A DNA stretch of 61,905 bases, counting the filler, from Stramenopiles sp. TOSAG23-6 (taxonomy: Eukaryota), in the NCBI GenBank assembly GCA_900128565.1. It is 24 parts of 24 records of this genome, joined end to end, with 100 filler letters (N's around TTAATTAATTAA, not from the genome) between each part and the next. Parts side by side here need not be neighbours in the genome. Positions count along the whole stretch, not along the records: positions 5,205 to 7,705 come from LT638009.1; 23 more parts are not named here. The stretch is one strand, 5' to 3'. The notes beneath the pieces were generated by a model, which saw only the letters and a program-made list of their open reading frames with translations, did not search any database and had not been told where the DNA came from. Of the stretch, positions 5,063 to 61,821 are shown one piece after another. Positions within the stretch are counted from its first letter, which is position 1, and each line of letters starts with the position of its first letter. The position numbers and the translations under genes were made by a program.

Positions 5063-5280
5063 ATGTATTTTGGAAAAATATTTCAAAAAAATATTCGTTA
5101 GGTANNNNNNNNNNNNNNNNNNNNNNNNNNNNNNNNNNNNNNNNNNNNTTAATTAATTAANNNNNNNNNNNNNNNNNNNNNNNNNNNNNNNNNNNNNNNN
5201 NNNNAAAAAAAAAAAAAAAATTGAAATTTTTTTTCGTTAGGTACAAAATTTCGTATAAAAAAATAAAATGTAGGAAATAC

Positions 5281-5961
5281 GACAAACAATCTCCACTTCC
5301 AGCCGATGCAAGAATTGATCCTAACCAAGATACACTTCTGACAGTTCCATCGTGTCCAGCTAAAATGACGTCATTTTCTTTGCTCGATGTTAATTTCAAT
5401 TTTTCATTATTTCGTGTTTTTGTTGAATGTTTCAATTTTTCATTATTATCCGTAGGGTTAGGGTTAGGGTTTGGTACATCATTTGGATGTTCACTGACAC
5501 GAATGACACGTATCATTTTATCATTAGATGCAGATGCCACACACGTATTATCATTTGAAAAGTGTACTGAATATATACTATACACAATATTAAAAAAAAA
5601 AAAAATCTTTTTAGTTTAGGTACAAAATTTCTTAAAAAATTTCGTAAAAAAAAAAAAAAAAAAAAAAAAATGAAATTCATGATGAAAACATACAAACAGA
5701 TCCTAAATGATGATTCTCTCTTTCTAAAAGTATACTACCATCAAATGCATCACATATTGTTATTTTTTTTGAGTTTGTACCAAAAACAACGAATTTGCCA
5801 TTTCTTGAGTAAGACACAGATCTTCGATACTATACAACAATATTTTTTTTTTTTTAAATGTTTTTTGTTAGGTACGAAATTTACTACGAAAAAAAAAATG
5901 ATTTTTTTTTTTTTTTTTTTTAATTTTTTTTTTTAGGTACGAAATTTACTACGAAAAAAAA

Positions 5962-5997
<36 letters not shown>

Positions 5998-6482
5998 TTT
6001 TTGTTAGGTACGAAATTTACTACGAAAAAAAAAGTTGATTTTTTTTTTTTTTAAATTATTACATACATTGCTTGGGTGTCTTTTGCTAAAGTAAACTGTT
6101 CAAAATCACTCAAACACAATATATCAGAGTTTCCGATAGTAGATGAATTTTCATCTGAATGTAACGAACTGGAATTGTCCTAAAATGTGAAGAATAAATC
6201 CATATTTTTTTAGATTGAGAATTTTTTTTTACGAAAAAAAAAAAAAAAAAAAAAAAAAATTAAAAAAAAAAAAAAAANNNNNNNNNNNNNNNNNNNNNNN
6301 NNNNNNNNNNNNNNNNNNNNNNNNNNNNNNNNNNNNNNNNNNNNNNNNNNNNNNNNNNNNNNNNNNNNNNNNNNNNNNNNNNNNNNNNNNNNNNNNNNNN
6401 NNNNNNNNNNNNNNNNNNNNNNNNNNNNNNNNNNNNNNNNNNNNNNNNNNNNNNNNTTTTTTTTTTTATTTTAAGAAAAAAA

Positions 6483-6518
<36 letters not shown>

Positions 6519-7630
6519 TACACCCAATAGATCCATCAACATCAACAAAATATGTTTCATACAAAATTTTCATACAAATTGAGTTTGGCACAGGACGCAA
6601 ACCTGTCATGGCTACAGCTCTGCTAAAAGACGAAAACGGTAATTGACAATATTGGAATCCATTGGTGTACCGGGTACCTTGAATGGTTGAAAAAGTATTT
6701 GGTTTTTTTTCTGTTTTTTTCTTCAATTTTGTTTGAAAATCTAAAATTTCTGTAAATAACGAAGATGTTATAATTGAATTATTGACAATTACTTTTTTTT
6801 CAGAATTTTTTTTTTGATTTTTTTGATTTTTTTGATGTTTCAAATTTTTTTTTTTTTGGTAAAAAAATTTTTGATTTTTTTCTAGGGTTAGGGCTTCATG
6901 TTTTTTCTTTTGTTCTTTTTCATTTCGTTTTGTTTCATATAATTGAATACGTTGTTGTAAATGTGGTGGAAGAGGAATCGGCGAATGTTTTGATTCATCA
7001 TGATCTTTGTTATTTTTGTTATTTTTGTTATTTTTGTTATTTTTGTTATTTTTGTTATTTTTGTTGTTAGGGTTAGGGTTTTCATTTGAAGTACTACGAA
7101 TTTTTGTACTTGAGGGAATTTCCCAAGTCTCTGCTGGTTTCAACTGATTTTGTTTGGGTTGTATTTGAATCATATTTTCTGTATTTTCTGTATTTTCTGT
7201 ATACATCTTATTCAATGTAGTTGGAATAAAATGTTGTATTTTTTTTTCAAAAATTTTTTTTTTTTCAAAATTTTTTTTTTCTTCAAAAATATTTTTTTTT
7301 TCAAAATTTTTTTTTTCATCAAAAATATTTTTTTTTTCATCATTTCCAACAGAATGAGAAAACATACAGCCAGAACGTTGTAAGATATCCTTCACTTGTT
7401 TATATTCTGTGATATTTCTACTTTGATTGCCCAGGTGTTTCATATTATCGATATTTCGTGTATTCATTGAAATTTCAATGTCATGATTTTTTTGTACAGT
7501 TTCAAAATGTTTGTTAGAATTCGTGTTATTAGGGTTAGGGTTTAAACACAGTGCATTTCTCATTCCAATACTACAATTTTTTGCTCTAAATTTGACATGT
7601 CGATTATCAATTGGATAATCATCACCTCGG
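5281..7630 (-). CDS. WDR47: WDR47-like WD40 protein, partial; inferred exons 7630-6522, 6179-6067, 5824-5694, 5572-5281 (internal gap 6278-6456)
   Basis: Spliced sequence DTQAIRSVSYS..GTNSKKITIC..HHLGSVYSVHFS..ASASNDK..HDGTVR..ASAGSGDC follows the WDR47 WD40 region as I recall it. Confidence 0.75.
5573..5693 (-). other. Non-canonical intron GT-AT
   Basis: GTATGT...TGTACCTAAA...TATAGTATAT|; restores GSVYSVHFS; the AG 5 nt upstream gives a frameshift and stop. Confidence 0.8.
5825..6066 (-). other. Non-canonical intron, probably GT-CG, with three branch-point cassettes
   Basis: GTATGT...TATAGTATCG|; restores DTQAIRSV. Confidence 0.6.
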
Positions 7631-7652
7631 ATGTTTTTTGGAAAAATATTTC

Positions 7653-7701
<49 letters not shown>

Positions 7702-7805
7702 TTTTNNNNNNNNNNNNNNNNNNNNNNNNNNNNNNNNNNNNNNNNNNNNTTAATTAATTAANNNNNNNNNNNNNNNNNNNNNNNNNNNNNNNNNNNNNNN
7801 NNNNN

Positions 7806-7852
<47 letters not shown>

Positions 7853-7929
7853 CAATTTTTTTTTCATAGTAAATTTTGTACCTAACAAAAAAAACAAAAA
7901 AAAAAATGATATATTTTTCAAAAATACAT

Positions 7930-8686
7930 ACAAACCAGATTTTCATGGGTGGATTAAACACAATGGTGATGCATAATACATGTGAAGATTCGTTATTGGC
8001 TGCTCCTTTGATTTTGGATTTGGTCATTTTAACTGAACTTATGGAACGTATTTCTGTTAAAACACAGTCAAATGGTGAATTTGAACGATTTCATCCTGTG
8101 TTGTCTATTTTATCATACCTTCTCAAGGCACCAATGTATGTTTTTTTTTTTTTTTGAAAAATCTTTTTTTTTCATACGAAATTTCGTACCTAACAATTTT
8201 TTTTTTTTTTCAAATATTTTTTTTAGTATAGGGTCGCTGAAAACACACCTGTTGTGAATGCATTATTTGCTCAACGTGAATCGATTGTGAATGTACTACG
8301 AGCATGTTCTGGTTTAAACCCTAATCATCACATGGGTTTGGAACATAAAGTGTACGTTTATATATTATGAATTTTAAATTTATTTATTTTTTTTTTGGTT
8401 TTCATACAAAATTTTGTACCTAACAAAAAAAATTAAATTTTTTTTTTTTTTTATTTTTTTATTTTTGTTTTCTTTCTAAAAAAAATGATACTATAATTAA
8501 TAATTAATAATGAGTAAATAATAACAAATTTTTTAAAATGACTATATTGTTTCATAATACAGGTCATGTGCTGGAACAAACATGTCTATGGCATGTGCTG
8601 CTGCAAAGAGTTCTTCTGTTATTTTCAAAAATAAGGAAAATAATTGTATGGTGAATTCGAGATCTTCTTCTGTTCCTATCTTGTAA
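7930..8686 (+). CDS. INO1: myo-inositol-1-phosphate synthase, 3' part; exons 7930-8135, 8232-8351, 8563-8686
   Basis: [39 protein letters not shown]. Confidence 0.95.
8136..8231 (+). other. Family intron with GT-AG ends
   Basis: GTATGT...ATACGAAATTTCGTACCTAAC...TTAGTATAG|; restores [14 protein letters not shown]. Confidence 0.9.
8352..8562 (+). other. Family intron with GT-AG ends
   Basis: GTACGT...TTGTACCTAAC...AATACAG|; leads in frame to the stop at 8686. Confidence 0.75.
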
Positions 8687-8904
8687 GAGAAAAATGTACA
8701 AAAATCACTATACTATTATATTGTATTGTTATTTATACAATATATATATATATATACGATATTTTTATACGATTATTTTTATACAATATAATGTAATTTT
8801 GTATAGTGTGATAGAAGTATGTTTTCAAAATTAATTTTTTTTTTTTTTTTTTTTTTTAAATTNNNNNNNNNNNNNNNNNNNNNNNNNNNNNNNNNNNNNN
8901 NNNN

Positions 8905-8947
<43 letters not shown>

Positions 8948-8984
8948 TTTTTTATAAAAACAGGATAGAAATAGAATGTAAATT

Positions 8985-9339
8985 CTGAGTGAAATGGATT
9001 TGGCGATAGGTGGTTTTTATATTGATTCTAGTTGTTGTTGTTGTAAATACTGAGTGAAATGGATTTGGCGATAGGTGGTGTTTATATCTAATCATTAGAA
9101 TAACTATTTCTATATCATGTATGTTGTTTGTTTGTATCATGAATTTTTTAACATTATTGTTTTTTTTTTTTCATACAAAATTTTGTACCAAAACAATTTT
9201 TTTTTTTTGAGTATATACGGTTTTATCATTTTTTTTTCATACAAATTTTCCTACCTAACAATTGTTTTTAACCAATTTTAAATTTCTATTCTTTTTGATA
9301 ATACATGAACTGAGTGAAATGGATTTGGCGATAGGTGGT
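8985..9339. repeat. Three copies of a 30-bp sequence CTGAGTGAAATGGATTTGGCGATAGGTGGT
   Basis: Copies at 8985, 9050 and 9310. Confidence 0.85.
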
Positions 9340-9482
9340 TTGTGACTTCTATTTTTATGTTAAGAAAAATAAATTCTTTTAATTTCAATTTTTTTATTTT
9401 TTTTTTTAATATTCTGAAATAATTTATTTTTGATGATCCCTATTTTATTGATAGGAATTAAAATAATAATTATGGAAAATAT

Positions 9483-9996
9483 TTAGAAAAGACATCTTTT
9501 TGCACTAGTATTTCCGGCATTAGCAGATGAAAAAAAATATTCAGCAAGATTTTGTTTTGCTTCACTATTACCTAAATTAGCAGATTTAGTAAACCACTTT
9601 TTAGCTTCATTTACGTCTTGAGCAACACCAATACCATGAAAATAGCATTCACCAAGATTATGTTGTGCCATACTATTACCTAAATTAGCCGATTTAGTAA
9701 ACCACTTGAAAGCTTCTTTTTTGTCTTCAGCAACACCATGACCATGAAAATAGCATCGACCAATATAAAATTGAGCATAACTATAATCACTATTATCCAT
9801 ACACATCTTAAATGCTTTTTTATCATCCATTTTATAACCATTCCAACCCCAAAATGTACATAATGCAATAGCCGTTGGAAAACCAGCTATAGCTGCAGAT
9901 TCAATCATTCGTATTCCATTCTCTCTATCCTCAGTCTGAAAATCTATGCCATAATATTTTGCATAACCAAGTTCAAATAAATTCTGTGCACCTTTA
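9483..9996 (-). CDS. Sel1-repeat protein, 5' truncated by fold-back
   Basis: AQFYIGRCYFHGHGVAEDKKEAFKWFTKSANLGN repeats. Confidence 0.9.
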
Positions 9997-10302
9997 TAAA
10001 GGTGCACAGAATTTATTTGAACTTGGTTATGCAAAATATTATGGCATAGATTTTCAGACTGAGGATAGAGAGAATGGAATACGAATGATTGAATCTGCAG
10101 CTATAGCTGGTTTTCCAACGGCTATTGCATTATGTACATTTTGGGGTTGGAATGGTTATAAAATGGATGATAAAAAAGCATTTAAGATGTGTATGGATAA
10201 TAGTGATTATAGTTATGCTCAATTTTATATTGGTCGATGCTATTTTCATGGTCATGGTGTTGCTGAAGACAAAAAAGAAGCTTTCAAGTGGTTTACTAAA
10301 TC
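9691..10302. repeat. Spacerless inverted duplication (306-bp arms), likely amplification chimera
   Basis: Centre CCTTTA|TAAAGG at 9996/9997; identical ORF on both strands; ends at the contig end. Confidence 0.9.
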
Positions 10303-20676: not shown

Positions 20677-21167
20677 NNNNNNNNNNNNNNNNNNNNNNNN
20701 NNNNNNNNNNNNNNNNNNNNTTAATTAATTAANNNNNNNNNNNNNNNNNNNNNNNNNNNNNNNNNNNNNNNNNNNNTTAATTATTAATATTCTTCCTCCT
20801 CTCTTCTTTTTCTCTTCTTTATTCTTCCTTCTTATTATATATTTATGTGCAGTTTCATTTGCCTTACTATTGTTATATTATCCACTACTTTAGAGATAAT
20901 CATAGGATATTTTAAAACAGTATATCAATAAATATACTTTTAATTGAAAATGAAAAATGTGAAAAGAAATAAAATATGAATAAACACAGCATACGTATAT
21001 AAAAAAATAGAATGAAGAGAGACGAAGCAAAACGTTTGTTTAATCAACTGCTTTTCTACAGTAATTTCAACAAGAGATATTGGATTTCCAAAAGTTAAGT
21101 GTAAATAAAAACAATGCATAAAAGAAATCAACTCTTTAAAGACATCAAAGCACAATCAAATTAAATC

Positions 21168-22427
21168 ATGGATCTAAGCAACCAAGACGTACGGAATCTT
21201 CTGCCATATTTTATATTAATTGAAATCATTGAAGACAATGAGGAGGAGGTGGAAGATTTGATAATGCTGAATGCCGTGCTCCGCACAAGAACATTTGAGA
21301 GAATGGACTACATACCGGTCACAAGCCCTGTTTATTCTGGTTTCTATAACTCGCCGTTGCACAGAGGGTTAGGAAATTCTGCGTTTTATATGAAATTCTT
21401 GAAAATGACAACAACCACCTTTGCAAAATTGGCGGCAATTTTTTCTCCTATTCATCGGTATGCAAAGATTAATCACCAGGGCAAGTTGGCTTTTTATAAA
21501 AGGGAGCCCCCATCCACAACGTTATGCTCATCTGATTGCTTGGCTTGTTTCTTGTTTTGGTTTTATAATTGCGCAAACCAAGAAACATGCAGCCTATTGT
21601 TTGGGATACACCCCAGAAAAACCAGCCGTATCTTAGTCCTTGCTAGGGCGGTACTTCTTGCCGCACTTCTTGATCACCCTGATTCAAGAGTGACCTTTCC
21701 ATCTTCTGATGAGAGGGCAGTGCTAGCTGATATTGCGTCAGAGAAATACCGTGGCCTCATTGGAGATGAGCAGGTGTGGGGTTTTATTGATGGGTGCAAA
21801 TTAAATGTGGTTAGATCAGGCGACCAAGACATACAAAATGCTCATCACAGTGGCTGGTTAAAGCGACAGGTGGTAAACAATGTCATCCTATTTGATGTCA
21901 CGGGGCGAATTCGTTGGTACAATGTGAATCTTCTTGGGAATACTCATGATTCAGCTGCAACTCTACCCCTCTACTCACATTTAAGAACATGTAACCCAGT
22001 GGAAAAAATATTGGCAGACAAAGCCTTTGCCGACGTTTCAGGAATGCTCCCGCTAAATAAAACGCGCCTTGAAGCAACGGACAATGGCCCTGCATTGGTT
22101 TCGTTGCGACAATCCGTAGAACATGGCATGCGCATTTTCCAAGAGCCAGGAACACTCAAGATGAAGTTGTGTCATGATCCGGTCAAGCGCCAAGAACTGT
22201 TGCAACTTTCTTGCTTGTTGAATAATTTTAAAACAGTTCATGACAAGAACCAAATTTCGTCGACATTTGTTGGCAACATGTCTGATGCACTATTGGAGAT
22301 GGAGTTTGAGCACATTTGCTACGCAAACGAACAGGCACAACAGGAAAATCAGTTACTTGCCCCGTTCCAACAAGGACTGGAAGTGATGTTGCGGAACGAG
22401 ATTACCAAACGTGGGCTAAATTTCTAA
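21168..22427 (+). mobile_element. PIF/Harbinger (IS5/PHIS superfamily, DDE_Tnp_4-like) transposase ORF; element ends not identified
   Basis: GFIDG, SGW, GNTHDS, ILADKAF and LRQSVEHGM catalytic-region motifs; intact, intronless, more GC-rich than its flanks. Confidence 0.85.
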
Positions 22428-28612: not shown

Positions 28613-30936
28613 GCTGTTGATTCTTCTTCGAAACAACTTTGTGAAAATACAAAAAATACTTTTCCAATCCCTAAAAACTCCAACTCTAATCCTTCAACTA
28701 GTTCTTCGAAAACAACAGAGAAAGTATCATCATCAAAAATATCATCTGAAGGGAAACTACATGTATGTTTTATTTTTTTTTCAATTTTTTCAATTTCGAA
28801 TTTATTTTTTTATAAAAATTTTGTACCTAACAAATATTTTTTTTAAATAATTTTCCAAAATACATGTAGCAAATGGTGTTCATCAAAGTATTTTTCCTTT
28901 ACCACAAAATTCAACAGAAATATCTAAAACGTCATGTATAGTTGCATCACCTATTAAACCTATTGAAGCTCTCTCTAAAGATGACAACCATGAGGGAATG
29001 AGTAAAGATGACAACCATGAGGAAACGAGTAAAGATGACAACCATGAGGAAATGAGTACTATGAATAATGAAAAATTTCAAGTGAACACTGAAAATCGTA
29101 CTGAGAATCGGACTGAAAGGGCAGGTACATTTGATGATGAAATTAGGTCACTTCAAATTGCACCAAATGGATCTACTTTTACACCCCAACGGAAATTAAA
29201 GAGATCAACTCCGCCTGGAGATGCGGTCTTTGGAAATTTGCTCCTGAATACACCAAATGCAATTATGATGATGGATCCTTTCTTTACTAAAAGTGTTTGT
29301 AGTAGTATTTCACATGGTACTTCAACAGGTCGACCTCCACGGCCCGAAGCTTCAATACAAAAGTATAAAGATTCTGTCAATGGGAAATATATTCATAATA
29401 GTGTGACCAAATTAGAATCATCGGCACAAAAAAACGATGTAAAAGAAAAAGAGAACCAAAACAGCCATCAGTCACAAAGATGTAAAAATACTATTAATGT
29501 AAAACGCCGAGATCGTACTGACTCAGGACCAGGCAGGATGATACGTGTCGTTTCACGTTCTCCAATATCGGATGGGGGTAACACTGTGAGTGTAACCAAT
29601 GTATGTTTTATTTTTTTTCAAATTCGATGTTTTTTTTTATAGTAAATTTTGTACCTAACGTTTTTTTTTCAAATATTTTTCCAAAATACATCCGGCACAA
29701 AATGAAATTGAGTCCAGTAAAGTTTCATCTGTCGTACTTTTTCATTATGAATTTCATTTTGTTTTTGTTTTTGTTTTTGTTACGAAAATGTATACTTAAC
29801 GAGTTTTTTTAATATATTTTTCACAATACATGCGGCTTCCATCGCAAGCACTGAAAGTCTTCCTGTAGGTTCATTGGGAGCATCTGCACGTGATGGTTTG
29901 ATAATTTCGTCTTCTTTACTTAAATCGCGATCAAATGCGTCGTTGAAGAATGGCGACAACTCTTGTGTAGTTTCTCTCGTTCAGTGTATGGAAAAGAATA
30001 CAATATCAGCCATGTCTTCGAAAATATCTAAAACTACAACAAAATCCAATGGAAATGATATAGATAATAATAACAATAATATTAATGATAACGAAGTTGA
30101 AAAATCTAATTTTCTACAAGAAACAATGAATCCACCAGCAGTTTCTTCATCGCCAAAGTCTATTACTTCGAGTCACGAATTTGAAACAAATCCTCTACGG
30201 TTGAATCGGTCTTTATCGTTTAGCGATGCTGTTTCAAATCGGAGTCCACTAAGACGAACAAATAGACATTTGTCATTTAGTGAAGCGGCAGAGGTTGGTA
30301 ATAGTCCTCCAGTTGAAAGTTATGCTCGTCGTGCGGCGGAATTATGCACTTTAGATGACGTCACTGGTCTTTCCCACTCATTTAGTGAAGATCATACAGT
30401 AAGAAATAATGGTCGAGATAAAGAGCAATTAGTTCAATTGGGAGAAGTGATGAAAAGATTTCAACGTGAACAAGATTATGAATATGAGGAAACTAAAAAT
30501 AGTACAAGTAAATCAATCGATACAATTCCAAAAAATGAAAATAAAGAAGTCTTTAATGCCGATATTGAATGTAAATATAAAGATGGAATTATTTGTGATG
30601 ATAAAAGTAGTCTTGTTGAAAAACATATGAAACGTAATGATCTATACGATGAAAACAAGATGAATGCACGATCAGAAAATACAAATGTTTCGGATGACAG
30701 TGATCAAGATATTAATGATCCGTATGGTACGTTTTCATTATGAATTTCAAATTTATTTTTTTTTTGGTTTTCATACGAAATTTTATACCTAACAAATTTC
30801 GAATTTAATTTTTTTTACAATACATGTGGTGTTCGTCGAATAAGATGTGAGTTAGATGCATCTTTTGCATGCGCGGCATTGGAAAGCTCAACACCTCATG
30901 AAAAGTTGTCCAGACGTCCTGATCCCTCAAAATCAT
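28613..30936 (+). CDS. S/N/T-rich low-complexity protein; exons 28613-28762, 28866-29600, 29692-29733, 29832-30726, 30826-30936
   Basis: Removing four GT-AT introns gives one uninterrupted frame. Confidence 0.75.
28763..28865 (+). other. Non-canonical intron GT-AT
   Basis: TACAT|GTATGT...AAAATACAT|GTA; TACATGTA is present at both junctions. Confidence 0.8.
29601..29691 (+). other. Non-canonical intron GT-AT
   Basis: Family consensus, phase 0. Confidence 0.8.
29734..29831 (+). other. Non-canonical intron GT-AT
   Basis: GTACTT...TATACTTAAC...CAATACAT|, phase 0. Confidence 0.7.
30727..30825 (+). other. Non-canonical intron GT-AT
   Basis: GTACGT...TATACCTAAC...CAATACAT|, phase 1. Confidence 0.7.
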
Positions 30937-33874: not shown

Positions 33875-34424
33875 GTTTAAAAAAGAAACAACGTCAAGTT
33901 TTCCAGGAAAATATGGAATTAAAAGATGAACAGGAGCGACTTGAAGGGGAAGTGAAACGCTTGAAAAAAAAACTGTTTAACCCTAACCCTAATGACATAT
34001 GTTTTATTTTTTTTTTCACAAAAAATCGAATGTTTTTTTTTCGTACGAAATTTTGTACCTAACAAAAAAAATTTTAAAGAAAATTTTGAAATATTTTTCC
34101 AAAATACACGTTGCTACAAAAAAAGGCGTAGAAGGTATAAAATGGTTATCAAAATGTGCAAATGCAGGTAATAGTGAAGCTCAATACGAATTGGGTGATC
34201 GTTTTTTTGAAGGTGATGGTATTGAGGAAGATAAACAAGAAGCTATCAAATGGTATCGTCAATCGGCAACTGGAGGAAATCGAGAAGCACAATTCTGGCT
34301 AGGTAAATGTTATTGTTTAGGTGATGGTGTTGATGAAGACGAACAAGAAGCTATTAAGTGGTTGACTGAAGCTGCTAATGCTGGCCATCCGGACGCACAA
34401 GAAATGCTTGATGAAGAATTTTAA
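33875..34424 (+). CDS. Sel1-repeat protein, last exons 33875-33996 and 34110-34424
   Basis: AQYELGDRFFEGDGIEEDKQEAIKWYRQSA repeats. Confidence 0.85.
33997..34109 (+). other. Family intron with AT-AC termini
   Basis: GAC|ATATGTTTTATTTT...GTACGAAATTTTGTACCTAAC...CCAAAATACAC|GTT, phase 0 in frame. Confidence 0.7.
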
Positions 34425-36081: not shown

Positions 36082-36350
36082 ATGTATTTTGTAAAAATAT
36101 TTCAAAATTTTTTTTTTTTTTTTTGGTAAAAAAAAATTTTTAGGTAAAAAATTTCGTACGAAAAAAAAAAAAAAAAAAAAAANNNNNNNNNNNNNNNNNN
36201 NNNNNNNNNNNNNNNNNNNNNNNNNNTTAATTAATTAANNNNNNNNNNNNNNNNNNNNNNNNNNNNNNNNNNNNNNNNNNNNACAGATATTGTTGTTTGT
36301 TTGTACTACTTGTTGAAGTTTGAAATTTTGAAATTTTTGAAATTAAAAAA

Positions 36351-37202
36351 TTATGAATTTTTATTTCTTATATTTTTCATTGCATTTAAATGAGCTTCAC
36401 CACCCCACAATGTTTCAAATTCTCGAGCTTCAGTATCAAAAGTATTACAATTATTATAATAACTTGCAATAATTCTTTTATTTGCACGAACTGCTGTTGG
36501 GCTCATTCTTTCTTTCTGAAAATTTTCCTTTAAAAATTGTACGCTTGCAGTAATGGTCTGGCCTGGTACACAAATTTGATCACATATTCCTACAGTAACG
36601 GCTCTTTCAGGGTGTATTACTTCTGCGCCAGCAAGTATTTTACAAGCATCATTCCTAGATACGATGCTACAAAGTCGAGAAGCACCACCCCAACCTGGTG
36701 TTAGTCCCATTGTAGAATGGACCATTTGAAAAATAGTATCCGATGAGAATAATCTAAAATCACAAGACAATGCTAGTTCTGTGCCACCTCCTATAACGGA
36801 TCCTTCAACGGCAGCTATAGTAATTAAGTCTAACCCACGCCAACATTCAAGATAATGTGTCATAAATTGTCGCATTTCTTTACCAAAGTCCTCAGGTATA
36901 GATGTGTCTTTAACTACACTGAGATCTGCACCTGAACAAAAATGTGTTCCTGACCCTGCTAAAATTACACCTAGGCAATCGTTATTATTGCTACTAATGT
37001 CTTCTAATTTTTCTATTGCTGAAGCAAGTTCCGTCATCATTTTACCACTGATTGCATTTCTTCGGCTTTCATTATGTAATGTGACTGTATATATACCTGG
37101 TAAAGCTTCATTCAACGCAACATGACCTCCGCCTAAACGACGTAGTTTTGGGAAGGTTCGTGCAGCTGTTTTACGACAAAGGTATGATATCGGTATCGAC
37201 AT
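36351..37202 (-). CDS. ECHDC1: Enoyl-CoA hydratase/crotonase family, ECHDC1 (ethylmalonyl-CoA decarboxylase)-like
   Basis: RRNAISGKMM, FCSGADL, IGGGTELALSCDFR, MGLTPGWGGASRL, LWGGEAH. Confidence 0.85.
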   Translation of the reverse strand: MSIPISYLCRKTAARTFPKLRRLGGGHVALNEALPGIYTVTLHNESRRNAISGKMMTELASAIEKLEDISSNNNDCLGVILAGSGTHFCSGADLSVVKDTSIPEDFGKEMRQFMTHYLECWRGLDLITIAAVEGSVIGGGTELALSCDFRLFSSDTIFQMVHSTMGLTPGWGGASRLCSIVSRNDACKILAGAEVIHPERAVTVGICDQICVPGQTITASVQFLKENFQKERMSPTAVRANKRIIASYYNNCNTFDTEAREFETLWGGEAHLNAMKNIRNKNS

Positions 37203-37413
37203 CTAAACAACAAAAATGATCATGGTTGCTTAAGGAACATAAAGAATGAAGAACAAGTTTTTTATTTTTTTAACTTTGTACGCGAAAATGACCAGTTCGA
37301 GTTGCCATCAAAAACATCAAAAACATCAAAAACATCAAATCTCGTTTTTTTCCCAAGTCAAGTTCTCTTTTTTGTTCAAAACAATAATAAATACTACGTA
37401 CTTCTTCAAAAAG

Positions 37414-38761
37414 ATGGTAAGAGATAAATGTTTTGGTCTCTCCTGTGATACTGTATTTGCGTACAATACATCCAAAACCGTTGTAATAAGAGACCGCCGT
37501 GTTGGATGTCTCAGAATTTTTTTCCTGGCAGTAATTTTTATTTACATTGTCGTGTTTAAGATTCTGTATCAAAACGGTGGCTACACTTATGAACCACCAG
37601 TAGGCACAATACGCTTTGAGCTTCGTGCACCAGTTGTTGATAATTGTAATCCATACAAAGCAAACTGTGATAATAATTTTCTTCCTTTGACTAAATTACC
37701 ATACTGTTTGCAAAATCAAGAAAAGCGTCCAATTCCTGGGCAAAACGCTACGTTAGACAATTTCAACTGTGCCTATCTGGATTCGTTAGAAGCTGGTAAA
37801 GATGATTCTTTCTCCGTATATTTGACCACTTTCTTGAAAAGGTATACCCAAACACGAATGTGTAGCAATATTATATTGCAATCTAAAGTACCATCGAATA
37901 CAACTTCTTGTACACAAATGTTTAAAACGACAGCAACAGACCAGTATTTTGTTACACAACCTGAAAAATTTACGTTATTATTAGATCATAGTGCAACTGC
38001 ACCATTATTAGGAATAACTAGTATTGGACGTACCACAAATGGACGTCTAAAAATAAAAGAAGGAAATGATCAATTGTGTCTACATCCACCAAAAGGTCAT
38101 GTCGCATATAAATATGCTCTTGGGGAAGAAAATAGTCCTACAAAAGCACCATGTATCTTTTTATTGTAATCCGTAATACTTTTTTTTTTTTTGGTTTTCA
38201 TACGAAATTTTGTACCTAAAGAAAAAAAATTAATTTTTTTTTTTTTTGAACTTTTATATTTTTTACAATGTATGTTATATTGAGCCAGTACATCCGCCGT
38301 ATCCAAATAACCATTTAGATGTATTTTCAATTGAAACATTACTCTCAGCTGCAGGGCTTGGCTTGGATACTGTGGCATATCAAACAGGGAACAAACCTGA
38401 TAGTGTACGAAAACGTGGAGGTATAGTTATGTACATTTTCATTATGAATATTGTACCAATTTTGAAATTATTTTTTTTTTTTTTTTTNTAAAAAAATTTT
38501 NTACCTAAANAAAAANAAAAAAAAAAAAAAAAATTACAGTGTCAATATACGATATTCATTATTTAAATAATCATTAATCATCATTTAAATCATCATTTAA
38601 ATGATTATTAAATAATTTCAAATTTTTGTAAAATATATATATATATATCCACAATACATTGTGTCCATATCATATGAAAATACACTACCATGGATGCAAA
38701 CAACAACGCCATTTTATACTTATGAATTATCTACTTTACCACATACTGAATTTAAAACACA
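37414..38761 (+). CDS. P2X purinoreceptor-like cation channel, 3' partial; exons 37414-38152, 38274-38430, 38660-end
   Basis: FAYNTSK (YxTxK) + VIRDRRVG + TM1; FTLLLDHS; spliced R.RGGIVIVSISYEN. Confidence 0.85.
38153..38273 (+). other. Non-canonical intron GT-AT
   Basis: AT|GTATCT...TTGTACCTAAA...CAATGTAT|GT; KAPCYIEP. Confidence 0.75.
38431..38659 (+). other. Non-canonical intron GT-AT
   Basis: AT|GTACAT...CCACAATACAT|T; restores GGIVIVSISYEN. Confidence 0.75.
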
Positions 38762-38929
38762 NNNNNNNNNNNNNNNNNNNNNNNNNNNNNNNNNNNNNNN
38801 NNNNNTTAATTAATTAANNNNNNNNNNNNNNNNNNNNNNNNNNNNNNNNNNNNNNNNNNNNACAGATATTGTTGTTTGTTTGTACTACTTGTTGAAGTTT
38901 GAAATTTTGAAATTTTTGAAATTAAAAAA

Positions 38930-39781
38930 TTATGAATTTTTATTTCTTATATTTTTCATTGCATTTAAATGAGCTTCACCACCCCACAATGTTTCAAATT
39001 CTCGAGCTTCAGTATCAAAAGTATTACAATTATTATAATAACTTGCAATAATTCTTTTATTTGCACGAACTGCTGTTGGGCTCATTCTTTCTTTCTGAAA
39101 ATTTTCCTTTAAAAATTGTACGCTTGCAGTAATGGTCTGGCCTGGTACACAAATTTGATCACATATTCCTACAGTAACGGCTCTTTCAGGGTGTATTACT
39201 TCTGCGCCAGCAAGTATTTTACAAGCATCATTCCTAGATACGATGCTACAAAGTCGAGAAGCACCACCCCAACCTGGTGTTAGTCCCATTGTAGAATGGA
39301 CCATTTGAAAAATAGTATCCGATGAGAATAATCTAAAATCACAAGACAATGCTAGTTCTGTGCCACCTCCTATAACGGATCCTTCAACGGCAGCTATAGT
39401 AATTAAGTCTAACCCACGCCAACATTCAAGATAATGTGTCATAAATTGTCGCATTTCTTTACCAAAGTCCTCAGGTATAGATGTGTCTTTAACTACACTG
39501 AGATCTGCACCTGAACAAAAATGTGTTCCTGACCCTGCTAAAATTACACCTAGGCAATCGTTATTATTGCTACTAATGTCTTCTAATTTTTCTATTGCTG
39601 AAGCAAGTTCCGTCATCATTTTACCACTGATTGCATTTCTTCGGCTTTCATTATGTAATGTGACTGTATATATACCTGGTAAAGCTTCATTCAACGCAAC
39701 ATGACCTCCGCCTAAACGACGTAGTTTTGGGAAGGTTCGTGCAGCTGTTTTACGACAAAGGTATGATATCGGTATCGACAT
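38930..39781 (-). CDS. ECHDC1: ECHDC1-like crotonase (duplicate copy)
   Basis: Identical to 36351-37202. Confidence 0.85.
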   Translation of the reverse strand: MSIPISYLCRKTAARTFPKLRRLGGGHVALNEALPGIYTVTLHNESRRNAISGKMMTELASAIEKLEDISSNNNDCLGVILAGSGTHFCSGADLSVVKDTSIPEDFGKEMRQFMTHYLECWRGLDLITIAAVEGSVIGGGTELALSCDFRLFSSDTIFQMVHSTMGLTPGWGGASRLCSIVSRNDACKILAGAEVIHPERAVTVGICDQICVPGQTITASVQFLKENFQKERMSPTAVRANKRIIASYYNNCNTFDTEAREFETLWGGEAHLNAMKNIRNKNS

Positions 39782-39992
39782 CTAAACAACAAAAATGATC
39801 ATGGTTGCTTAAGGAACATAAAGAATGAAGAACAAGTTTTTTATTTTTTTAACTTTGTACGCGAAAATGACCAGTTCGAGTTGCCATCAAAAACATCAAA
39901 AACATCAAAAACATCAAATCTCGTTTTTTTCCCAAGTCAAGTTCTCTTTTTTGTTCAAAACAATAATAAATACTACGTACTTCTTCAAAAAG

Positions 39993-41340
39993 ATGGTAAG
40001 AGATAAATGTTTTGGTCTCTCCTGTGATACTGTATTTGCGTACAATACATCCAAAACCGTTGTAATAAGAGACCGCCGTGTTGGATGTCTCAGAATTTTT
40101 TTCCTGGCAGTAATTTTTATTTACATTGTCGTGTTTAAGATTCTGTATCAAAACGGTGGCTACACTTATGAACCACCAGTAGGCACAATACGCTTTGAGC
40201 TTCGTGCACCAGTTGTTGATAATTGTAATCCATACAAAGCAAACTGTGATAATAATTTTCTTCCTTTGACTAAATTACCATACTGTTTGCAAAATCAAGA
40301 AAAGCGTCCAATTCCTGGGCAAAACGCTACGTTAGACAATTTCAACTGTGCCTATCTGGATTCGTTAGAAGCTGGTAAAGATGATTCTTTCTCCGTATAT
40401 TTGACCACTTTCTTGAAAAGGTATACCCAAACACGAATGTGTAGCAATATTATATTGCAATCTAAAGTACCATCGAATACAACTTCTTGTACACAAATGT
40501 TTAAAACGACAGCAACAGACCAGTATTTTGTTACACAACCTGAAAAATTTACGTTATTATTAGATCATAGTGCAACTGCACCATTATTAGGAATAACTAG
40601 TATTGGACGTACCACAAATGGACGTCTAAAAATAAAAGAAGGAAATGATCAATTGTGTCTACATCCACCAAAAGGTCATGTCGCATATAAATATGCTCTT
40701 GGGGAAGAAAATAGTCCTACAAAAGCACCATGTATCTTTTTATTGTAATCCGTAATACTTTTTTTTTTTTTGGTTTTCATACGAAATTTTGTACCTAAAG
40801 AAAAAAAATTAATTTTTTTTTTTTTTGAACTTTTATATTTTTTACAATGTATGTTATATTGAGCCAGTACATCCGCCGTATCCAAATAACCATTTAGATG
40901 TATTTTCAATTGAAACATTACTCTCAGCTGCAGGGCTTGGCTTGGATACTGTGGCATATCAAACAGGGAACAAACCTGATAGTGTACGAAAACGTGGAGG
41001 TATAGTTATGTACATTTTCATTATGAATATTGTACCAATTTTGAAATTATTTTTTTTTTTTTTTTTNTAAAAAAATTTTNTACCTAAANAAAAANAAAAA
41101 AAAAAAAAAAAATTACAGTGTCAATATACGATATTCATTATTTAAATAATCATTAATCATCATTTAAATCATCATTTAAATGATTATTAAATAATTTCAA
41201 ATTTTTGTAAAATATATATATATATATCCACAATACATTGTGTCCATATCATATGAAAATACACTACCATGGATGCAAACAACAACGCCATTTTATACTT
41301 ATGAATTATCTACTTTACCACATACTGAATTTAAAACACA
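39993..41340 (+). CDS. P2X receptor-like (duplicate copy)
   Basis: Identical to 37414-38761. Confidence 0.85.
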
Positions 41341-41526: not shown

Positions 41527-42625
41527 TAAACGTTGCAAAGCAATCTGCAATACAGCATTCAATGAAGAATCTAAGAAACATGGATTCAGAATACCCAGAA
41601 AAAGACGCTTGCTACTCACAGGATGAAGAAATGGAATGCACAAATAATATAAAAATTCAATTAATTGAAGCTGGAATTGATCTCCACAAGTTTGACCCAA
41701 CCGTAACAAAACCTATTATTCCAAAAAATGACTCTGAAATACTTGTTGGATTTGTTGGAAGACTTGTAGAACAAAAACGACCGTTAGAATTTGTTAAAAT
41801 GGCTTCTGTAATACAGCAACGTTTGAATACTGTTTTCAATATTAATAGTAGTAAAGAATATACTTTAAAACAAATTTGCCATAGTATAGAAAATGTTCAA
41901 ACTAAAGATAATGAAAAAATATCCCAGAATTACCCCACAAAGAGTATATCCAAATATATTCGATTTATTATGGTTGGTTCAGGAGGTGCGTCAACTTCCA
42001 TTGTAAACTTGGCCAAATCGTTGGGAGTGAATATTGAATTTTTTGATTCAACAGAACATGTACCACAAGTACTATCATCTTTAGATATGTGCGTTTTCAT
42101 CATTTTAATTTCAAAATTTGAATTATAATTTTTTTTTCGGACCTAATTCAAATCCGATATTTTTTTATATCTAACAAATTTCAAACTTTTAAATATATGT
42201 TTTCGCTTTACATTTTTATCCATCTATCAGTTTGGGACACTGCGGCGTATGTACGTTTCATTTTTTTTCAATTTCTAATTTATTTTTCGTACGGAATTTT
42301 GTACCTAACGTTTTTTTTGAAATATTTTTCCAAACTACATGCTGTGCGCGAGGCAATGGCAATGAAACTTCCTGTAGTTGCTCTTAGTACAAATTTAGGA
42401 GTTTCTGATTATGTTGAACACGAAAAATCTGGATTACTAGTAAATTCTCTCAATGAAGAAGAAGTTGCTTCAGCTGTGCTAAAATTAGTTTGTAATAAAA
42501 AAAAACGAGAAGAATTTGGATATAACGGAAGATTAGTCATTGAGAACATTGCGCCAATTGATAGATTTGTAGATGAACACGCCGCTTTATACGTCAAATT
42601 GTGGCGAAATCGTACACGTACGTAA
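41527..42625 (+). CDS. GT-B (GT4-like) glycosyltransferase, 3' part; exons 41527-42088, 42214-42250, 42341-42625
   Basis: GFVGRLVEQK, spliced DIFIHLSVWDTAAYAVREAMAMKLPVVA, SGLLV. Confidence 0.88.
42089..42213 (+). other. Non-canonical intron GT-AT
   Basis: AT|GTGCGT...ATCTAAC...TTTACAT|T; restores LDIFIHLS. Confidence 0.75.
42251..42340 (+). other. Non-canonical intron GT-AT
   Basis: TAT|GTACGT...GTACGGAATTTTGTACCTAAC...CAAACTACAT|GCT; retention would insert 30 aa into the GT4 signature. Confidence 0.8.
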
Positions 42626-50364: not shown

Positions 50365-51515
50365 ATGAGTTCTATGAAGAGTCTAATTCAACGAAATGTG
50401 AGCGGTCTTGTCTTTCTCATTGGTGTTCTTTGTTATTCAAACATTTTCCCAGGTGAGTTCATATACGATGATTTCAAGGCCGTGTTACAAAACCCCGATA
50501 CAACGGGTCAACGTCCCTTTATGGAACTCTTTAAGCACGACTTTTGGGGGGAACGAATCGATTCTTTATACAGTCACAAGTCATGGAGACCTCTGACAAT
50601 TATTACATATAGACTTCAATATATGCTACATGGAGCTTCAGCAGCACCGTATCGAGCAGGTAATGTGCTATTACATGGTATTTGTTCAACACTAGTCGTT
50701 TGTATTTGTCAGAATGTTTTATTTATGCCCTTTCACAAAACGTTTGCTGCAGGAATTTTATTTGCTTTACACGTTCGTTTGTACTAGATTGATTTTTTTT
50801 GAAAATTTTTTTTGAAATTTTTTTTGAAATTTTTTTGAAAATTTTTTTTCGTACGAAATTCCGTACCTAACAATTTTTTTTTTTTTTTTTGAAATATTTT
50901 CCTACAACACATCCAATTCATACTGAAAGTGTTAATTGTATTGTCGGACGAGCTGAGTTATTATCAGCAATGTTTGCATTATTTTCACTATTATCTTATG
51001 CCAAAGGCGTCATTTTACTACGAAAGATTGCAAATCAAAATCAATATTTTAAAACTAACCCTAACCCTAAACAGAACAATGAAAAATACACGAAATATGA
51101 AAAATACACGAAATACGAAACATGGAAAAGTTTTTTTTTTATTTTTTTAACTTTTGTATTATCATTTTTATCAATGATTTCAAAAGAGCAGGGTATAACA
51201 ATTTTAGGTGTTTGTGGATTATTTGATATGTTTTATTCAACATCACGAGCAGGTTTGTTGTATGATATTTTTTATTTTTTGAAACATTTGATAAAAATAT
51301 TTCAAAAAAAAACAAAAAAAAAAATTGAAAAAAAAAAAATTGAAAAAAAAATCGAATTTGAAAGAAAACAATTTTCATTGTTTGTGATTCGTGGCATTAT
51401 TTTATTTATAGGCTTACTATGCATTTTATCATTTCGCTGGTGTGTCATGGGTGGACGTCCACCATCTACACGTGTTTTTTCAAATTTTGATAATCCTGCC
51501 GCTCATACACAAAAT
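50365..51515 (+). CDS. TMTC: TMTC-family protein O-mannosyltransferase, 5' part; exons 50365-50772 and 50913-51515
   Basis: FIYDD, DFWG, SHKSWRPL, spliced LFALHPIHTESV..IVGRAELL, SKEQGIT, FDNPAA. Confidence 0.92.
50773..50912 (+). other. Non-canonical intron GT-AT
   Basis: CAC|GTTCGT...CGTACCTAAC...ACAACACAT|CCA; the first downstream AG is out of frame and would delete PIHTE. Confidence 0.88.
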
Positions 51516-51793: not shown

Positions 51794-53932
51794 GTCTGGT
51801 TGAGAACATTTCAAAACCAAATAAACTTACTAGAATATCAACGGACCATCTCTGTGTCCTTTGGTGTGCGCAAGTATTAAAACCAATTACTCAGGGTCTT
51901 TTAGAACTCACGAAATTACGGAAAAAAAATAAAAATAAAAAAAATGTAAAAAGGAATGAAATATCTGCAAAAGATGGGTCGAAAACGTTTCAAAAATATA
52001 TGGTTCGTAGTTATGTATGTTTTATTTTTTTTCAAATTCGAATTTTTTTTTTTATAAAAATTTTGTACCTAACGATTTTTTTTTAAATATTTTTCCAAAA
52101 TACATTCGCCTTCAAATATTGTGCTTGAAAATAATGTAGTGTTGAAAGGATTTGATACAAAGGTGAGGAATGTCGATTTAAATTCTGGTTTTGGAGCTTT
52201 CGTTGTACGTTTTCAAAATTGAAGTTTTACATTTTTGTTCATACGAAATTTTGTACCTAACAAATATTTTTACACCAAAAAACAAATATTTTTTCACAAT
52301 ACTGAGTGATTGGTTGCGTTATAATGTTGAATCTATTATGGCGATGCTTGTTGTTATACCTCTTCTTGTATTTGTACATTTGATACCATTATTACGAGAA
52401 TCTAAATGGCGTGGAGCAACGTCGAAGAATCGCGTCAAGGGTGCATTAGTTATTAGAGGTCTTCGTTATGGTGCTGATGCAGGTATATGGTTGTTACTCT
52501 CCCCGGCGTCTCATTTACCTTTGCATGCCTTATATTTGTTTTTGAGCAAAATGACAAAGAAATCTGAATTTAATCATTTAATGACAACTATTTTAGTATC
52601 CATTGGTGTCTACACGGGTTTACACTCCTCGAGTGATTTTTGTCCTGTTTTAATTCTACCAGCTGTTCAATGGGTCCTTTGGTCTATGAATGAAGTAAAG
52701 GGATGTATTACTCAAATGGGAATGCGTTTATTCAGTATGCTGTCGATTCCTACAATATATGATTTCGTGTCACTTTTAGCATCTTATTTCGTGGCATTAT
52801 CTATTTTGGTTGCATTAGCCTGTGCACTAGAAATGTTTCATCAGTACATTGGAATTCGTATACATAAAATTGTACTTAAATTGGCGAATTATTCAATTGT
52901 CTCGAAAATATCAAAGGTATCTATGACATACTGGAGTTTACTAGTAATTGTTACGTTTTATGTAGCGATACATGTACGTTTTCAAAATTGAATTTGTTTT
53001 ACGTAAATTTTTTTTTCAAGTATATTATGTACCTAACGATTTTTTTACAAAAAAAAAACAATTTACAATACATATACGAATGGTGAAGCCTGCTATTGAG
53101 TATAGAAGTATTACTCTATTGAGAGAGATTTCTTGTCTTTTTATTCTTGTCTTTATCGTTCATCTTATATCTTTGGTATTAATAATTGTATACCCTTGCA
53201 TGTCAGACAATGCAAAAAGAATCTATCAACAAATAACTCTCATGCTGTATTTACCTAGTCTACCTATTTGGATGGGAAGTGTTATTCATATTTCTTCCAT
53301 TATGTTGGGCCCTGCAGGTGCAGATACATCTGGATCGTTTAACACTGTTATTTTATCATTGTTTTTCATCAGTGTTTCAAGTATGCATACCGTCTCCGTC
53401 ATGTATGTTGCGTTTACTACAAAATTGTATACCTAAGACTTTTTCTACTACATTTTTTTTACCTTTTTTTTTTTTACAATGAAAAATTTTACCTAACAAA
53501 TTTCGAAATGTAAAAACATATTTTTTCACAGTATATGCGTTTTACATTACCAGATGCAGATTTGGATGACAGTGAGAGTCTTGAATCATCGAGCAACCCT
53601 AACCCTAATTTATCAAAGTATAGAAATCCAAACAATTCTAGAAATAATAATCGATATTTAAATAAATATGATTTGAAAAGAGGTGAAAATACGAATTGCG
53701 AAAAGTGTCTATGTGTACGTTTCTAAAATTGAATTTCGAATTTACTTTTTGTTACTATGAAATATTTGTACCTAACGATTTCTTTTACGAAAAAAACAAA
53801 ATATTTTTCACCATGCATCCTTATGCTGAGTATGAAGCTATAGCACCAAATTCATGTGGTAAAACTCGAATTCATCGCTTTAAAGATGGAGAAGAAATAG
53901 TTCTAGGTCCTTCATTTCGTGTCGTTTGGTGT
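51794..53932 (+). CDS. Multi-pass membrane protein; exons 51794-52014, 52106-52204, 52305-52973, 53074-53402, 53537-53714, 53819-53932
   Basis: Five family introns (four GT-AT, one GT-TG) join six exons into one frame. Confidence 0.75.
52205..52304 (+). other. Non-canonical intron, probably GT-TG
   Basis: GTT|GTACGT...CACAATACTG|AGT; the adjacent AG is out of frame. Confidence 0.6.
53403..53536 (+). other. Non-canonical intron GT-AT skipping a CAG
   Basis: AT|GTATGT...TTCACAGTATAT|G; using the CAG leads to a premature TAA. Confidence 0.7.
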
Positions 53933-59540: not shown

Positions 59541-61821
59541 GTATTTAATTCTATGTTGGATTGTATTATCGAAAGTGGAGGCTTATTTTCAGGTCAAATA
59601 GAAATGCCAACAGTACCTCTTGAAGCACATCAAGAAAAAAAAATAAATTATGATAGAACTTTTTCTATACGAAAAATCATGCCTAAACAGAAATTGAAAA
59701 AATTGAAAACAAATATGAATAAATCTGAAATTGCATTACGTTGGCTCATTGGGATGAAGACTGAATTTGGTATAAATCCAGACACTGTCACATTAAATAC
59801 GATTCTACGCAAAAATGATTTTCTCCCACACGAAATGTTCGATTTTTTTCATCAAGCCACTTCCGAAAAACATGAAAAACATGAAAAACAACTCGGGATA
59901 AAACCTAATGTTTGGAGTTTTAATTTTATGATTAACAATTGTGAACAATGCAATGATTGGCCTGCAGCTCTAAAAGTATTTACATTAATGTCAAAGAAAA
60001 ACATAAATCCACAACCAACAACATATTCTCATTTAATATCAATGGCTGGAAGAAATAATTTATATAGTGAAATTTGTGATATAGTACAGTCAAAAATACA
60101 TTTGATGTCGCATGAATGCTTGGAATGGGCCGTTCATGCTGCTCACCGGACCCATAAATGGAATAATGTACATTATTTTATCGATAGAATGCTTGATATT
60201 GGAATAATTCCACAAAATGCAAATTTTAAAAGTGCTTTATTAGCATGTCATTATTCAAGTCCGTCTGGCGGTCCTTGTGTTGACACAGTATTTCGTTATA
60301 TTGAAACAGCTGAAAGATTAAATATTGGGATGAATAAGTTATACTCACCAGCCATTTCAGTTTGTGCAAGTGCTGGTGATTTCAATTCTGTGCGTATTGT
60401 ATGGGATAAGATGTTATCAAATGGTGTAAAACCGATGTATGTTTTATTTTTTTTTACGATGATTTTTTTTCGTACGAAATTTTGTACCTAAGATATTTTT
60501 TTTCAAATATTTTTCCAAAATACATTAGCGTTGATTATTCTGTGTGCATTCGACACTTAGTGAATACTGGGCATTGGCCTGAAGTACTGAAAGTTTTGAA
60601 TCATTTTGCAACAAGTACTGCGCCAGCGTCTTCTTGTGGATTTGGTAACATTGATCAACCACGATTTATTCGAGACAAATCACTGAGTGCATTTATATTC
60701 AGTTTGCCTCTGATTTCGTTAGCTTCATTAGTAGACAAAAGAAAAGTAAGCTCAATAGTTTCACTAGATAAAAATGTAGATATGAATGATGAAAGAAAAG
60801 AGACAAGTATTTATGTTCGTTTTATTTTTTTCAAATTCGATTTTTTTTTGTACGAAATTTCGTACCTAACAAATTTAAGTTTTTTTTTTTTGAAATATTT
60901 TTCCAAAATACATAGTTCATGACCCATTTTCTTCGAGACAATTTATCAAACACGAAATATATAGAAATAGTATTACAGGAAATGAAAAAATAGAAAATTA
61001 TAATTATAATAGGGTAGGAAATATTCATAGTAAAAATATAATGATTCATGATACTCATGATAATCCGTATATTGCCCTGTGTGTACGTTTTATTTTTTTT
61101 TTGAATTTCTAATTTTTTTTTCATACGAAATTTTGTACCTAACGAATTAAAAAAAANTATTTTTTCACAATGCATGCGGTGAGCGATTCAATGCTTCTTA
61201 CATTTTCTTCGGTAATGACGTCACCAGCTCCACAATATTCTAAATTACTTAGCAAAACTTTAAATAAAAGTATTAAAGGATTTTTAGCTGCTGGTAACGT
61301 TGNTGGAGCATGTATGTTTTATTTTTTTTTCAATTTTGAATTTTTTTTTTCGTACGAAATTTTGTACCTAACAAATATTTTTAGATTTTTTTTGTGAAAT
61401 ATTTTTCCAAAATACATTACGATTTAAGCGAACATTTGATACGAGTAATGTACGCATTCGCACCAATGACATGTTGCATATTATAGATAATTTATCAAAA
61501 GCAAGTCTATTTTCATCAGTGAATACTCCTCAAGTCGCATTAGAAATGTACTTTTTCATTTGAATTTCGAATTTATTTATTTATTTTCGTACGAAATTTT
61601 GTACCTAACAAATTTTTTTAGTTTTTTTTTTGAAATATTTTTTCATACTCCATGTTTCTCTCCGACATAGAATGTAAAAAATGGATACAAAGGACTTCAC
61701 AAAAAATACACAAAATACAAAATTTTGAATCGAGAGATGGTATACGGAATATACATACTACACATAATTTACATAATATACACGATACGTTACTTTGGAA
61801 GAAAAACAAACAGTGTGGAAT
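59541..61821 (+). CDS. Pentatricopeptide-repeat protein, partial; family introns at 60437-60525, 60815-60913, 61083-61175, 61312-61417, 61548-61653
   Basis: GINPDTVTLNTIL, GIKPNVWSFNFMI, PTTYSHLI PPR motifs; phase across 60815-60913 does not reconcile. Confidence 0.8.

Follow-up and report, generated by a model that had tools for sequence, protein, structure and literature searches.

A family of introns recurs in unrelated genes of this stramenopile genome, with the branch-point-like box on the coding strand in all 24 complete copies, a strong and ordinary 5′ end, and a 3′ end that in most copies is not AG. Four of these introns carry an AG shortly before the position at which their relatives end. 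In one of the four, which interrupts an inositol-3-phosphate synthase gene, homologous proteins place the junction exactly, five nucleotides beyond the AG that an ordinary spliceosome would be expected to take. On balance, we favor the explanation that these introns are diverged copies of an intron-making mobile element (introner/MITE-like) that are cut at the family-homologous position, with the AG skipped. The skipping of AG appears to belong to a larger feature of this genome, one that is apparently undescribed.

The window, by which we mean the whole stretch of 61,905 nucleotides that was analyzed, is AT-rich and consists of about 25 scaffolds of about 2.5 kb each, ordered by length and joined by N blocks around a 12-nt linker. 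The scaffolds are merely concatenated, so genes that adjoin here need not adjoin in the genome. Two of the scaffolds (36283-38761 and 38862-41340) are identical across all 2479 bases, which points to a duplicate record in the assembly. The gene that contains the 5573 intron encodes a WD40 protein and lies on the minus strand of scaffold 5205-7705, and the 3′ part of the synthase gene lies on the plus strand of scaffold 7806-10302. The WD40 gene had been called WDR47 in a sequence-only reading of this DNA. That name is not supported: Pfam recognizes WD40 and nothing else, and the top hits in database searches are WD40 proteins of a generic kind. An Rfam scan of the whole window returned no match.

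The family is marked by an 8-mer box, GTACCTAA, which has 47 matches in the window, most of them within a stereotyped intron of about 90-120 nt. The layout runs from GTATGT or GTACGT through a T-run, an inner palindromic piece, the box TACCTAAC, a further T-run, and an AAATATT box to an end of the form ..CCAAAATAC plus two nucleotides. The 3′ end thus reads ..AATAC plus two nucleotides and follows a TACCTAAC-like box that resembles a branch point. When 21 copies are aligned, conservation stands out in the box and at either end. Moreover, the start and the end of the family are inverted repeats, with GTAT(G)TTTT mirroring AAAATAC. The intron ends could also pair with each other, +1 to +4 with -6 to -3, and the AGTAT variant would keep this pairing through G-U; by eye, GTAC donors have no matching change at -6. 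The presence of the box on the coding strand of the flanking frames (24 of 24 copies), together with a strong donor and a strong box, favors splicing from RNA by a U2-type spliceosome over excision from DNA. The window also contains, at 21165-22424, an open frame with a DDE_Tnp_4 (PIF/Harbinger-type) transposase domain (E 3.7e-9), which is a possible source of transposase.

Our counts come from a table of 24 complete family copies, in which donors and ends were placed by reading coordinates. Automatic placement of the 3′ end by an 8-mer consensus failed on diverged copies, and these ends were read by eye. The donor was taken as the first base of GTAYGT and the cut as the family end plus two nucleotides. 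Under these rules a GTAYGT-like start occupies the homologous column in all 24 introns, and 23 of them start with GT. The termini are GT/AT in 16 introns and GT/AG in three, and GT/AC, AT/AC, GT/TT, GT/TG, and GT/CG occur once each. A non-AG acceptor is therefore found in 21 of the 24. In 15 of the 24, the intron closes with the same two bases as the preceding exon, and rare pairs are represented among them, AC/AC in two copies and TT/TT in one. The introns with an imperfect duplication include 5573, 50773-50912, 52205-52304, 53715-53818, and 61083-61175. An exact 2-nt repeat that extends to the rare ends is the mark of a 2-bp target-site duplication.

Other features of the 3′ end are more constant than its final dinucleotide. 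The last three intron bases are Y-A-Y in 18 of 24 introns, Y-A-G in three, and something else in three, so that Y-A-N describes 21 overall. An A stands at -2 in 21 of 24 introns, and the intron that ends at 5825, with its CG end, has no such A. Box and cut are 33-55 nt apart in all but two of the 24 introns, and the distance reaches up to 140 nt over the full set. On the exon side, the base at -3 is C in 11 of 28 donors by hand count. The sole copy that starts with ATATGT instead of GT (33997-34109) has AC as its final dinucleotide. AT-AC introns tolerate an initial A combined with a final C; here the combination is a single case and may be due to chance.

The family introns respect the reading frames that they interrupt. 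When the donor and cut rules were applied against the longest flanking open reading frames, the frame was kept in 21 of 24 introns, a count that is partly circular in that the ends of diverged copies were placed with the frame already known. One intron was out of frame and two were undecidable, 29601-29691 on account of a short exon and 61312-61417 on account of an N just upstream. Among the ten copies with at most one mismatch to the 8-mer end consensus, seven were in frame, one was out, and two were undecidable, where chance would give one-third in frame. The single exception, 60815-60913, in other respects a textbook copy of the family (..ATACAT), is one base out of frame with both of its long flanking frames; the offset reflects either a cut one nucleotide later (..ACATA) or an indel in the assembly.

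Among the 24 complete family introns, only four carry an AG at positions -7/-6. The sequence-only reading had picked out all four, and its letters and coordinates are correct. On the minus strand, the 121-nt intron at 5573-5693 begins with the donor GTATGT (5693-5688) and ends ..GTGTATAG-TATAT (short form ..TATAG-TATAT). Its bypassed AG lies at 5578-5579 and its branch-point-like box GTACCTAA at 5616-5623, which puts the presumed branch A 44 nt from the cut. This intron is in frame with an upstream open reading frame of 45 codons and a downstream one of 122 codons. The 242-nt intron at 5825-6066, also on the minus strand, ends ..TATAG-TATCG with its AG at 5831/5830. It contains three tandem copies of an inner unit of about 65 nt, each with its own branch-like box (5875, 5940, and 6011). 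On the plus strand, the synthase intron at 8136-8231 ends TTTTTTAG-TATAG, where the AG at 8225/8226 is skipped and the second AG is used, and the intron at 53403-53536 ends ..CACAG-TATAT with its AG at 53530/53531.

A GTATGT donor joined to the upstream AG produces a frameshift, as the sequence-only reading had stated for 5573, and a cut five nucleotides later keeps the frame and yields ..HHLGSVYSVHFSNDNT.., with GSVYSVHFS at the 5573 junction. What the four introns have in common is that the cut falls at the family-homologous position. Their AGs all align with the AA of the family end ..AAAATACAT, and the alignment suggests that each arose by an A-to-G change at -6, coupled with a C-to-T change at -3. 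An unused AG between box and cut is not itself rare, being present in 12 of 24 introns. Most of these AGs lie 10-20 nt past the box, a range in which ordinary spliceosomes also skip AGs. The AGs at -6 in the four introns are 38-44 nt past the box and fully exposed. Three of the four introns also offer an in-frame canonical alternative, at +6 for 5573, at +3 for 5825, and by a shifted GT-AG pair for 53536; none of the three alternatives had been pointed out in the sequence-only reading.

The strongest test of the cut position comes from the synthase gene. In alignment with the solved homologue 9m53_A, the last residue of exon 7933-8133 corresponds to residue 476 and residue 3 of exon 8233-8349 to residue 480; with 9f2k_A, the last residue of the first exon corresponds to 471 and residue 4 of the second to 476. 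Both solved homologues therefore leave exactly one residue between the exons, which makes the 8231 junction exact. A wider set of 119 homologues, of which 95 carry a KAP landmark and 105 a DEY/IFMGG landmark, gives the same answer. The residue after KAP (n=95) is L in 59, M in 24, V in 5, I in 2, C in 2, and A, Q, or N in one each, and it is never R. Six residues and then V[VI]NA follow in 94 of the 95. Removal of the intron 8136-8231 (GT..TATAG) gives M plus six residues, so the AG that follows eight Ts is skipped and the AG five nucleotides later is used. Moreover, a full-length relative (P0005) that is 91% identical over the query exon has the same length at 8231.

Two further junctions in this gene, both on the plus strand, agree with the family rule. 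The family intron at 8352-8562 (GTACGT..ATACAG) leaves EHK-V-SCAGT, as in the 91%-identical relative. At 7878-7929, the 3′ part of another family intron ends ..ATACAT directly before the synthase exon TNQIFMGG. All 105 homologues that bear the DEY and IFMGG landmarks have three residues between them. TNQ is encoded directly after ..ATACAT, the stretch from the box to the exon is free of AG, and the next AG, 9 nt inside the exon, would delete TNQ. Thus TNQ must be exonic, and with no AG upstream a non-AG acceptor is required. All three synthase junctions fit the homologues exactly.

A EukProt CDS (P0004) whose name begins GSMAST32 is 100% identical to the synthase exon, a hint that the organism is a MAST-3 marine stramenopile. 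This CDS uses the 8231 junction and reads through the family introns on both sides. It corresponds to window positions 7806-8862, starts inside one family intron (MIYFSKIH..), and runs into the next (..EHKVYVYIL). The read-through indicates that the annotation pipeline did not model these introns.

The WD40 gene allows a test of a different kind. Its exon at 5694-5824 (minus strand) encodes RSVSYS..HHLGSV plus one base, and its exon at 5288-5572 (minus strand) opens with 22 residues that match Pfam WD40 profile positions 16-37. The translations that flank the 5573 intron read ..ERENHHLGSV and SVHFSNDNTCVASASNDKMIRV.., and with exon residue 1 at profile position 16 there is presumably space for H, then three residues, V, and a single junction residue. 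We scored alternative joined products against 150 WD40 proteins that had been chosen by the downstream exon alone. At 5573, the family position had a mean full score of 117.6 versus 76.0 for the CAG at +6, and its best-domain score was higher in 146 of 150 comparisons. Other alternatives there (cuts at +3 or -3, and a donor at 5697 with a cut at 5571) scored 87-97, and the only close one was a same-length product with I for V (115.2). At 5825, the family position averaged 35.7, as against 22.6 for the AAG at +3 (best-domain score higher in 138 of 150) and 24.5 for a register that gives R (higher in 146 of 150).

Closer relatives of the WD40 protein were also sought. A protein search with exon 5289-5570 found none among proteins of near length, two weak generic WD40 proteins among longer ones, and 268 generic WD40 proteins with no orthologue among representative proteins; a scan of metagenome contigs with the WD40 exon found no relative. 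For the gene at 53536, no family or homologue was found, and its exon 53077-53400 had no relative among metagenome contigs. There, the cut at 53536 with the donor at 53403 is in frame and has an intact AT/AT duplication. At a glycosyltransferase junction (42251-42340), the upstream exon alone matched nothing and so gave no residue-level check.

These results separate what holds in the sequence-only reading from what does not. Its central claim, that an available AG is passed over, stands at 8231, where homology shows it, and is likely at 5573 and 5825 from the WD40 register; at 53536, the family alignment favors 53403/53536, but splicing as an ordinary GT-AG intron is possible. The broader statement that AG is ignored as such fails at 8231, which uses an AG. 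The description of the skipped site as the first AG after the branch point breaks down at 5573, where an AAG about 10 nt after the box comes first. The suggestion that the cut falls two bases after a TAY triplet describes 17 of 24 introns and does not work as a selector. The skipped TATAG at 5573 and at 5825 satisfies both this rule and Y-A-N, so neither rule explains the choice at these two introns.

How might such introns arise and be removed? We propose that the mobile element would supply both a strong 5′ site (GTAYGT) and a TACCTAAC-like branch box. The element would end in the inverted repeat ..AATAC, followed by two bases that copy the end of the exon as a 2-bp target-site duplication, mostly AT. 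If the spliceosome removes the element together with the downstream duplicate, the mRNA would regain its pre-insertion sequence. The family-homologous position would then set the cut regardless of which two bases come last, be they AT, AC, TT, TG, CG, or AG. The AG of the four introns would have been made by an A-to-G change at -6 with a C-to-T change at -3, and it would go unused while the cut column stays the same. The 3′ site may thus be read from context, either the element end or Y-A-N after it, and not from the first AG. Candidate cues are the element end itself, spacing relative to the AAATATT box, or a protein that binds in this region. More tentatively, the second splicing step may pick the 3′ site by position relative to the element-derived intron end and not by AG, a trait that would have originated independently outside animals and alveolates and with a U2-type spliceosome. 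We see this last proposal as possible, somewhat short of probable.

Direct RNA evidence is sparse. Only two RNA runs (X1 and X2) contained parts of the WD40 stretch. The X1 contig, 221 nt from a marine poly(A) metatranscriptome, covers 5287-5429 with four differences (about 97% identity). It leaves the genome at 5288/5287, and its 78 further letters, which are off the scaffold, read on in frame to ..AVRLWDIEK, the end of a WD40 repeat. This shows that the WD40 gene is expressed and that a joint exists at the donor of the following family intron; that donor is a GT if the exon ends at 5288. The X2 contig covers 5359-5562 and ends 10 nt before the 5573 junction. A comparison of RNA contigs from four runs with 5205-6277 revealed no joint, and no RNA contig crosses any of the four introns. 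In runs X3 and X5, only 31-nt low-complexity words at 5833-5870 matched. No transcript of the WD40 gene or of exon 53077-53400 turned up in two metagenome contig scans and protein searches.

Could the four introns be spliced in a more ordinary way? The canonical AGs just downstream might be the acceptors at 5573 (CAG at 5567-5569, minus strand, +6) and at 5825 (AAG at 5822, +3), with proteins that are two and one residues shorter. Each of these AGs keeps the frame when paired with its GTATGT donor. The presence of a nearby in-frame AG in two of two introns is suggestive, and the CG end at 5825 is odd. However, the WD40 register scores both downstream AGs lower in nearly all comparisons, the Pfam profile and the family alignment agree on the cut at 5573, and for 11 of the 21 family introns with a non-AG end, the interval from -20 to +21 offers no in-frame AG. 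Use of the downstream AGs is thus an improbable account. We consider it quite unlikely that the upstream AG is the real acceptor and that the donor is shifted by five nucleotides. Such a shift would make 53536 an ordinary GT-AG intron, from GTCATG at 53398 to a CACAG that comes after a U-tract, with frame and length kept, and it would fit the close score of the I-for-V product at 5573. It would also give 5573 and 5825 the donors TG and AG. Against it, GTCATG, TG, and AG starts match no pattern here, whereas all 24 copies have a GTAYGT-like start at the homologous column, and use of the first AG at 8231 is excluded by homology.

Both sites might also be used, with productive mRNA coming from the family position and the upstream AG yielding frameshifted products that undergo decay. 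At 8226 and 8231 the AG belongs in each case to a UAG, and the two lie five nucleotides apart, which would suit such a scheme; yet metatranscriptome contigs, from which rare forms drop out, show neither form, and we think dual use unlikely. A subtler alternative concerns the register of the cut. If the upstream duplicate were removed with the element (AT-GTATGT..ATAC, of the AT-AC type), the cut would come directly after TAY, as in Fritillaria, and an intact duplication, present in 15 of 24, would make the mRNA identical in either register. The difference between the registers is purely synonymous at 5573, 50863, and 52253; the mRNA at 5573 would read ..CTGTTTATTCAG.. in the GT register and ..CTGTATATTCAG.. 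in the shifted one, with the same protein. Where the registers do differ in protein, however, the GT register wins. It gives M and not R at 8231, where R occurs in 0 of 95 homologues; V as in the 91%-identical relative, and not R, at 8352-8562; and I and not R at 5825, with a higher score in 146 of 150. GTAYGT, moreover, matches the usual 5′ site in the GT register alone. This makes a two-base shift very unlikely, and we retain the GT register with the cut at the family-homologous position.

Non-canonical introns of Fritillaria were reportedly described by Henriet and colleagues in 2019. Fritillaria provides the closest published parallel to the introns described here. Work on F. borealis and F. 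pellucida describes non-canonical, transposon-derived introns, most of which are not GT/AG (Soo et al. 2026, PMC13326754; PMC11282704). A 3′ AT is the commonest end in both species, at 44% in F. pellucida and 34% in F. borealis, and the introns have a Y-A-Y last triplet, inverted repeats, target-site duplications, and a similar exon triplet before the intron (PMC13326754). The same source gives AG/AC and AG/AT as the main classes in F. borealis and reports a duplication of U2AF in Fritillaria (PMC13326754). The introns of this stramenopile share the Y-A-Y ends, the prevalence of 3′ AT, and a common C at exon -3. In contrast, their 5′ end is a normal, strong GTAYGT, and no AG/AC or AG/AT intron is among the 24. 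They differ also in having a yeast-like branch box, a 2-nt duplication, one dominant family, and a host that is a stramenopile and not an animal.

Introners are said to have been presented as intron-creating transposable elements by Huff and colleagues in 2016. Later surveys describe them in the same way (Gozashti et al. 2022, PMC9860276; 2025, PMC12130899). Like introners, the present family comprises many near-identical short sense introns at unrelated positions. Its element would carry one splice site, the other would be made with the duplication, and mRNA length would stay unchanged. Unlike the introners described so far (GY..AG), it has a duplication that is mostly AT, so its 3′ end is not AG. 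Families with unfamiliar ends were discarded or re-checked in introner surveys (PMC12130899). The introner elements of Amoebophrya (Farhat et al. 2021, PMC7789003) have duplications of 3-5 nt and variable ends on both sides, as summarized in PMC11282704. Amoebophrya is likewise a marine protist whose intron borders bear inverted repeats and short duplications and whose intron ends are non-canonical; in our family, only the 3′ end departs from the rule.

Other known systems are more distant. U12-type introns have the 5′ motif RTATCCTT and a branch box about 10-26 nt from the 3′ end. They resemble the family (as AT-AC introns) in tolerating non-AG 3′ ends and in a strongly conserved branch box, but the donor here is GTAYGT and 22 of the 24 introns have 33-55 nt between box and cut. 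At ordinary tandem acceptors, the usual model has the first AG past the branch point and U-tract win. The four introns likewise offer two candidate sites a few bases apart, but here the second site wins, and in three of the four cases it is not an AG. Diplonemid non-canonical introns were considered as a match and rejected, as their ends are GC-rich and variable. We found no report of such introns in the main-text passages of MAST-3 genome papers and introner surveys that were searched.

If junction reads confirm these introns, this would be the second kind of eukaryote after Fritillaria in which non-AG acceptors are the norm as the result of a single transposon wave. The donor and the branch box are textbook-like here, and the choice of the 3′ site can therefore be studied alone. 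The four skipped-AG introns serve as natural experiments in which the effect of "AG" can be told apart from that of "position". If the 3′ site is indeed read by position, the two bases that a transposon duplicates become the last two bases of an intron, and published gene sets of such genomes would be badly under-called. That the public CDS reads through two family introns indicates that gene callers that expect AG will truncate such genes or call them broken, and the gene sets of such genomes are probably under-called.

A separate feature of the window is a telomere-like AACCCT motif, which occurs ten times in runs of two to three repeats. These lie on the minus strand at 5471, 7080, 7542, and 31435 and on the plus strand at 32166, 32815, 33979, 51057, 53595, and 56181. 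Seven read N-P-N-P within long open frames and two read T-L-T-L. The repeat strand is that of the longer open frame in nine of ten (equal at 5471, shorter at 53595), and AAT follows the repeat in six cases.
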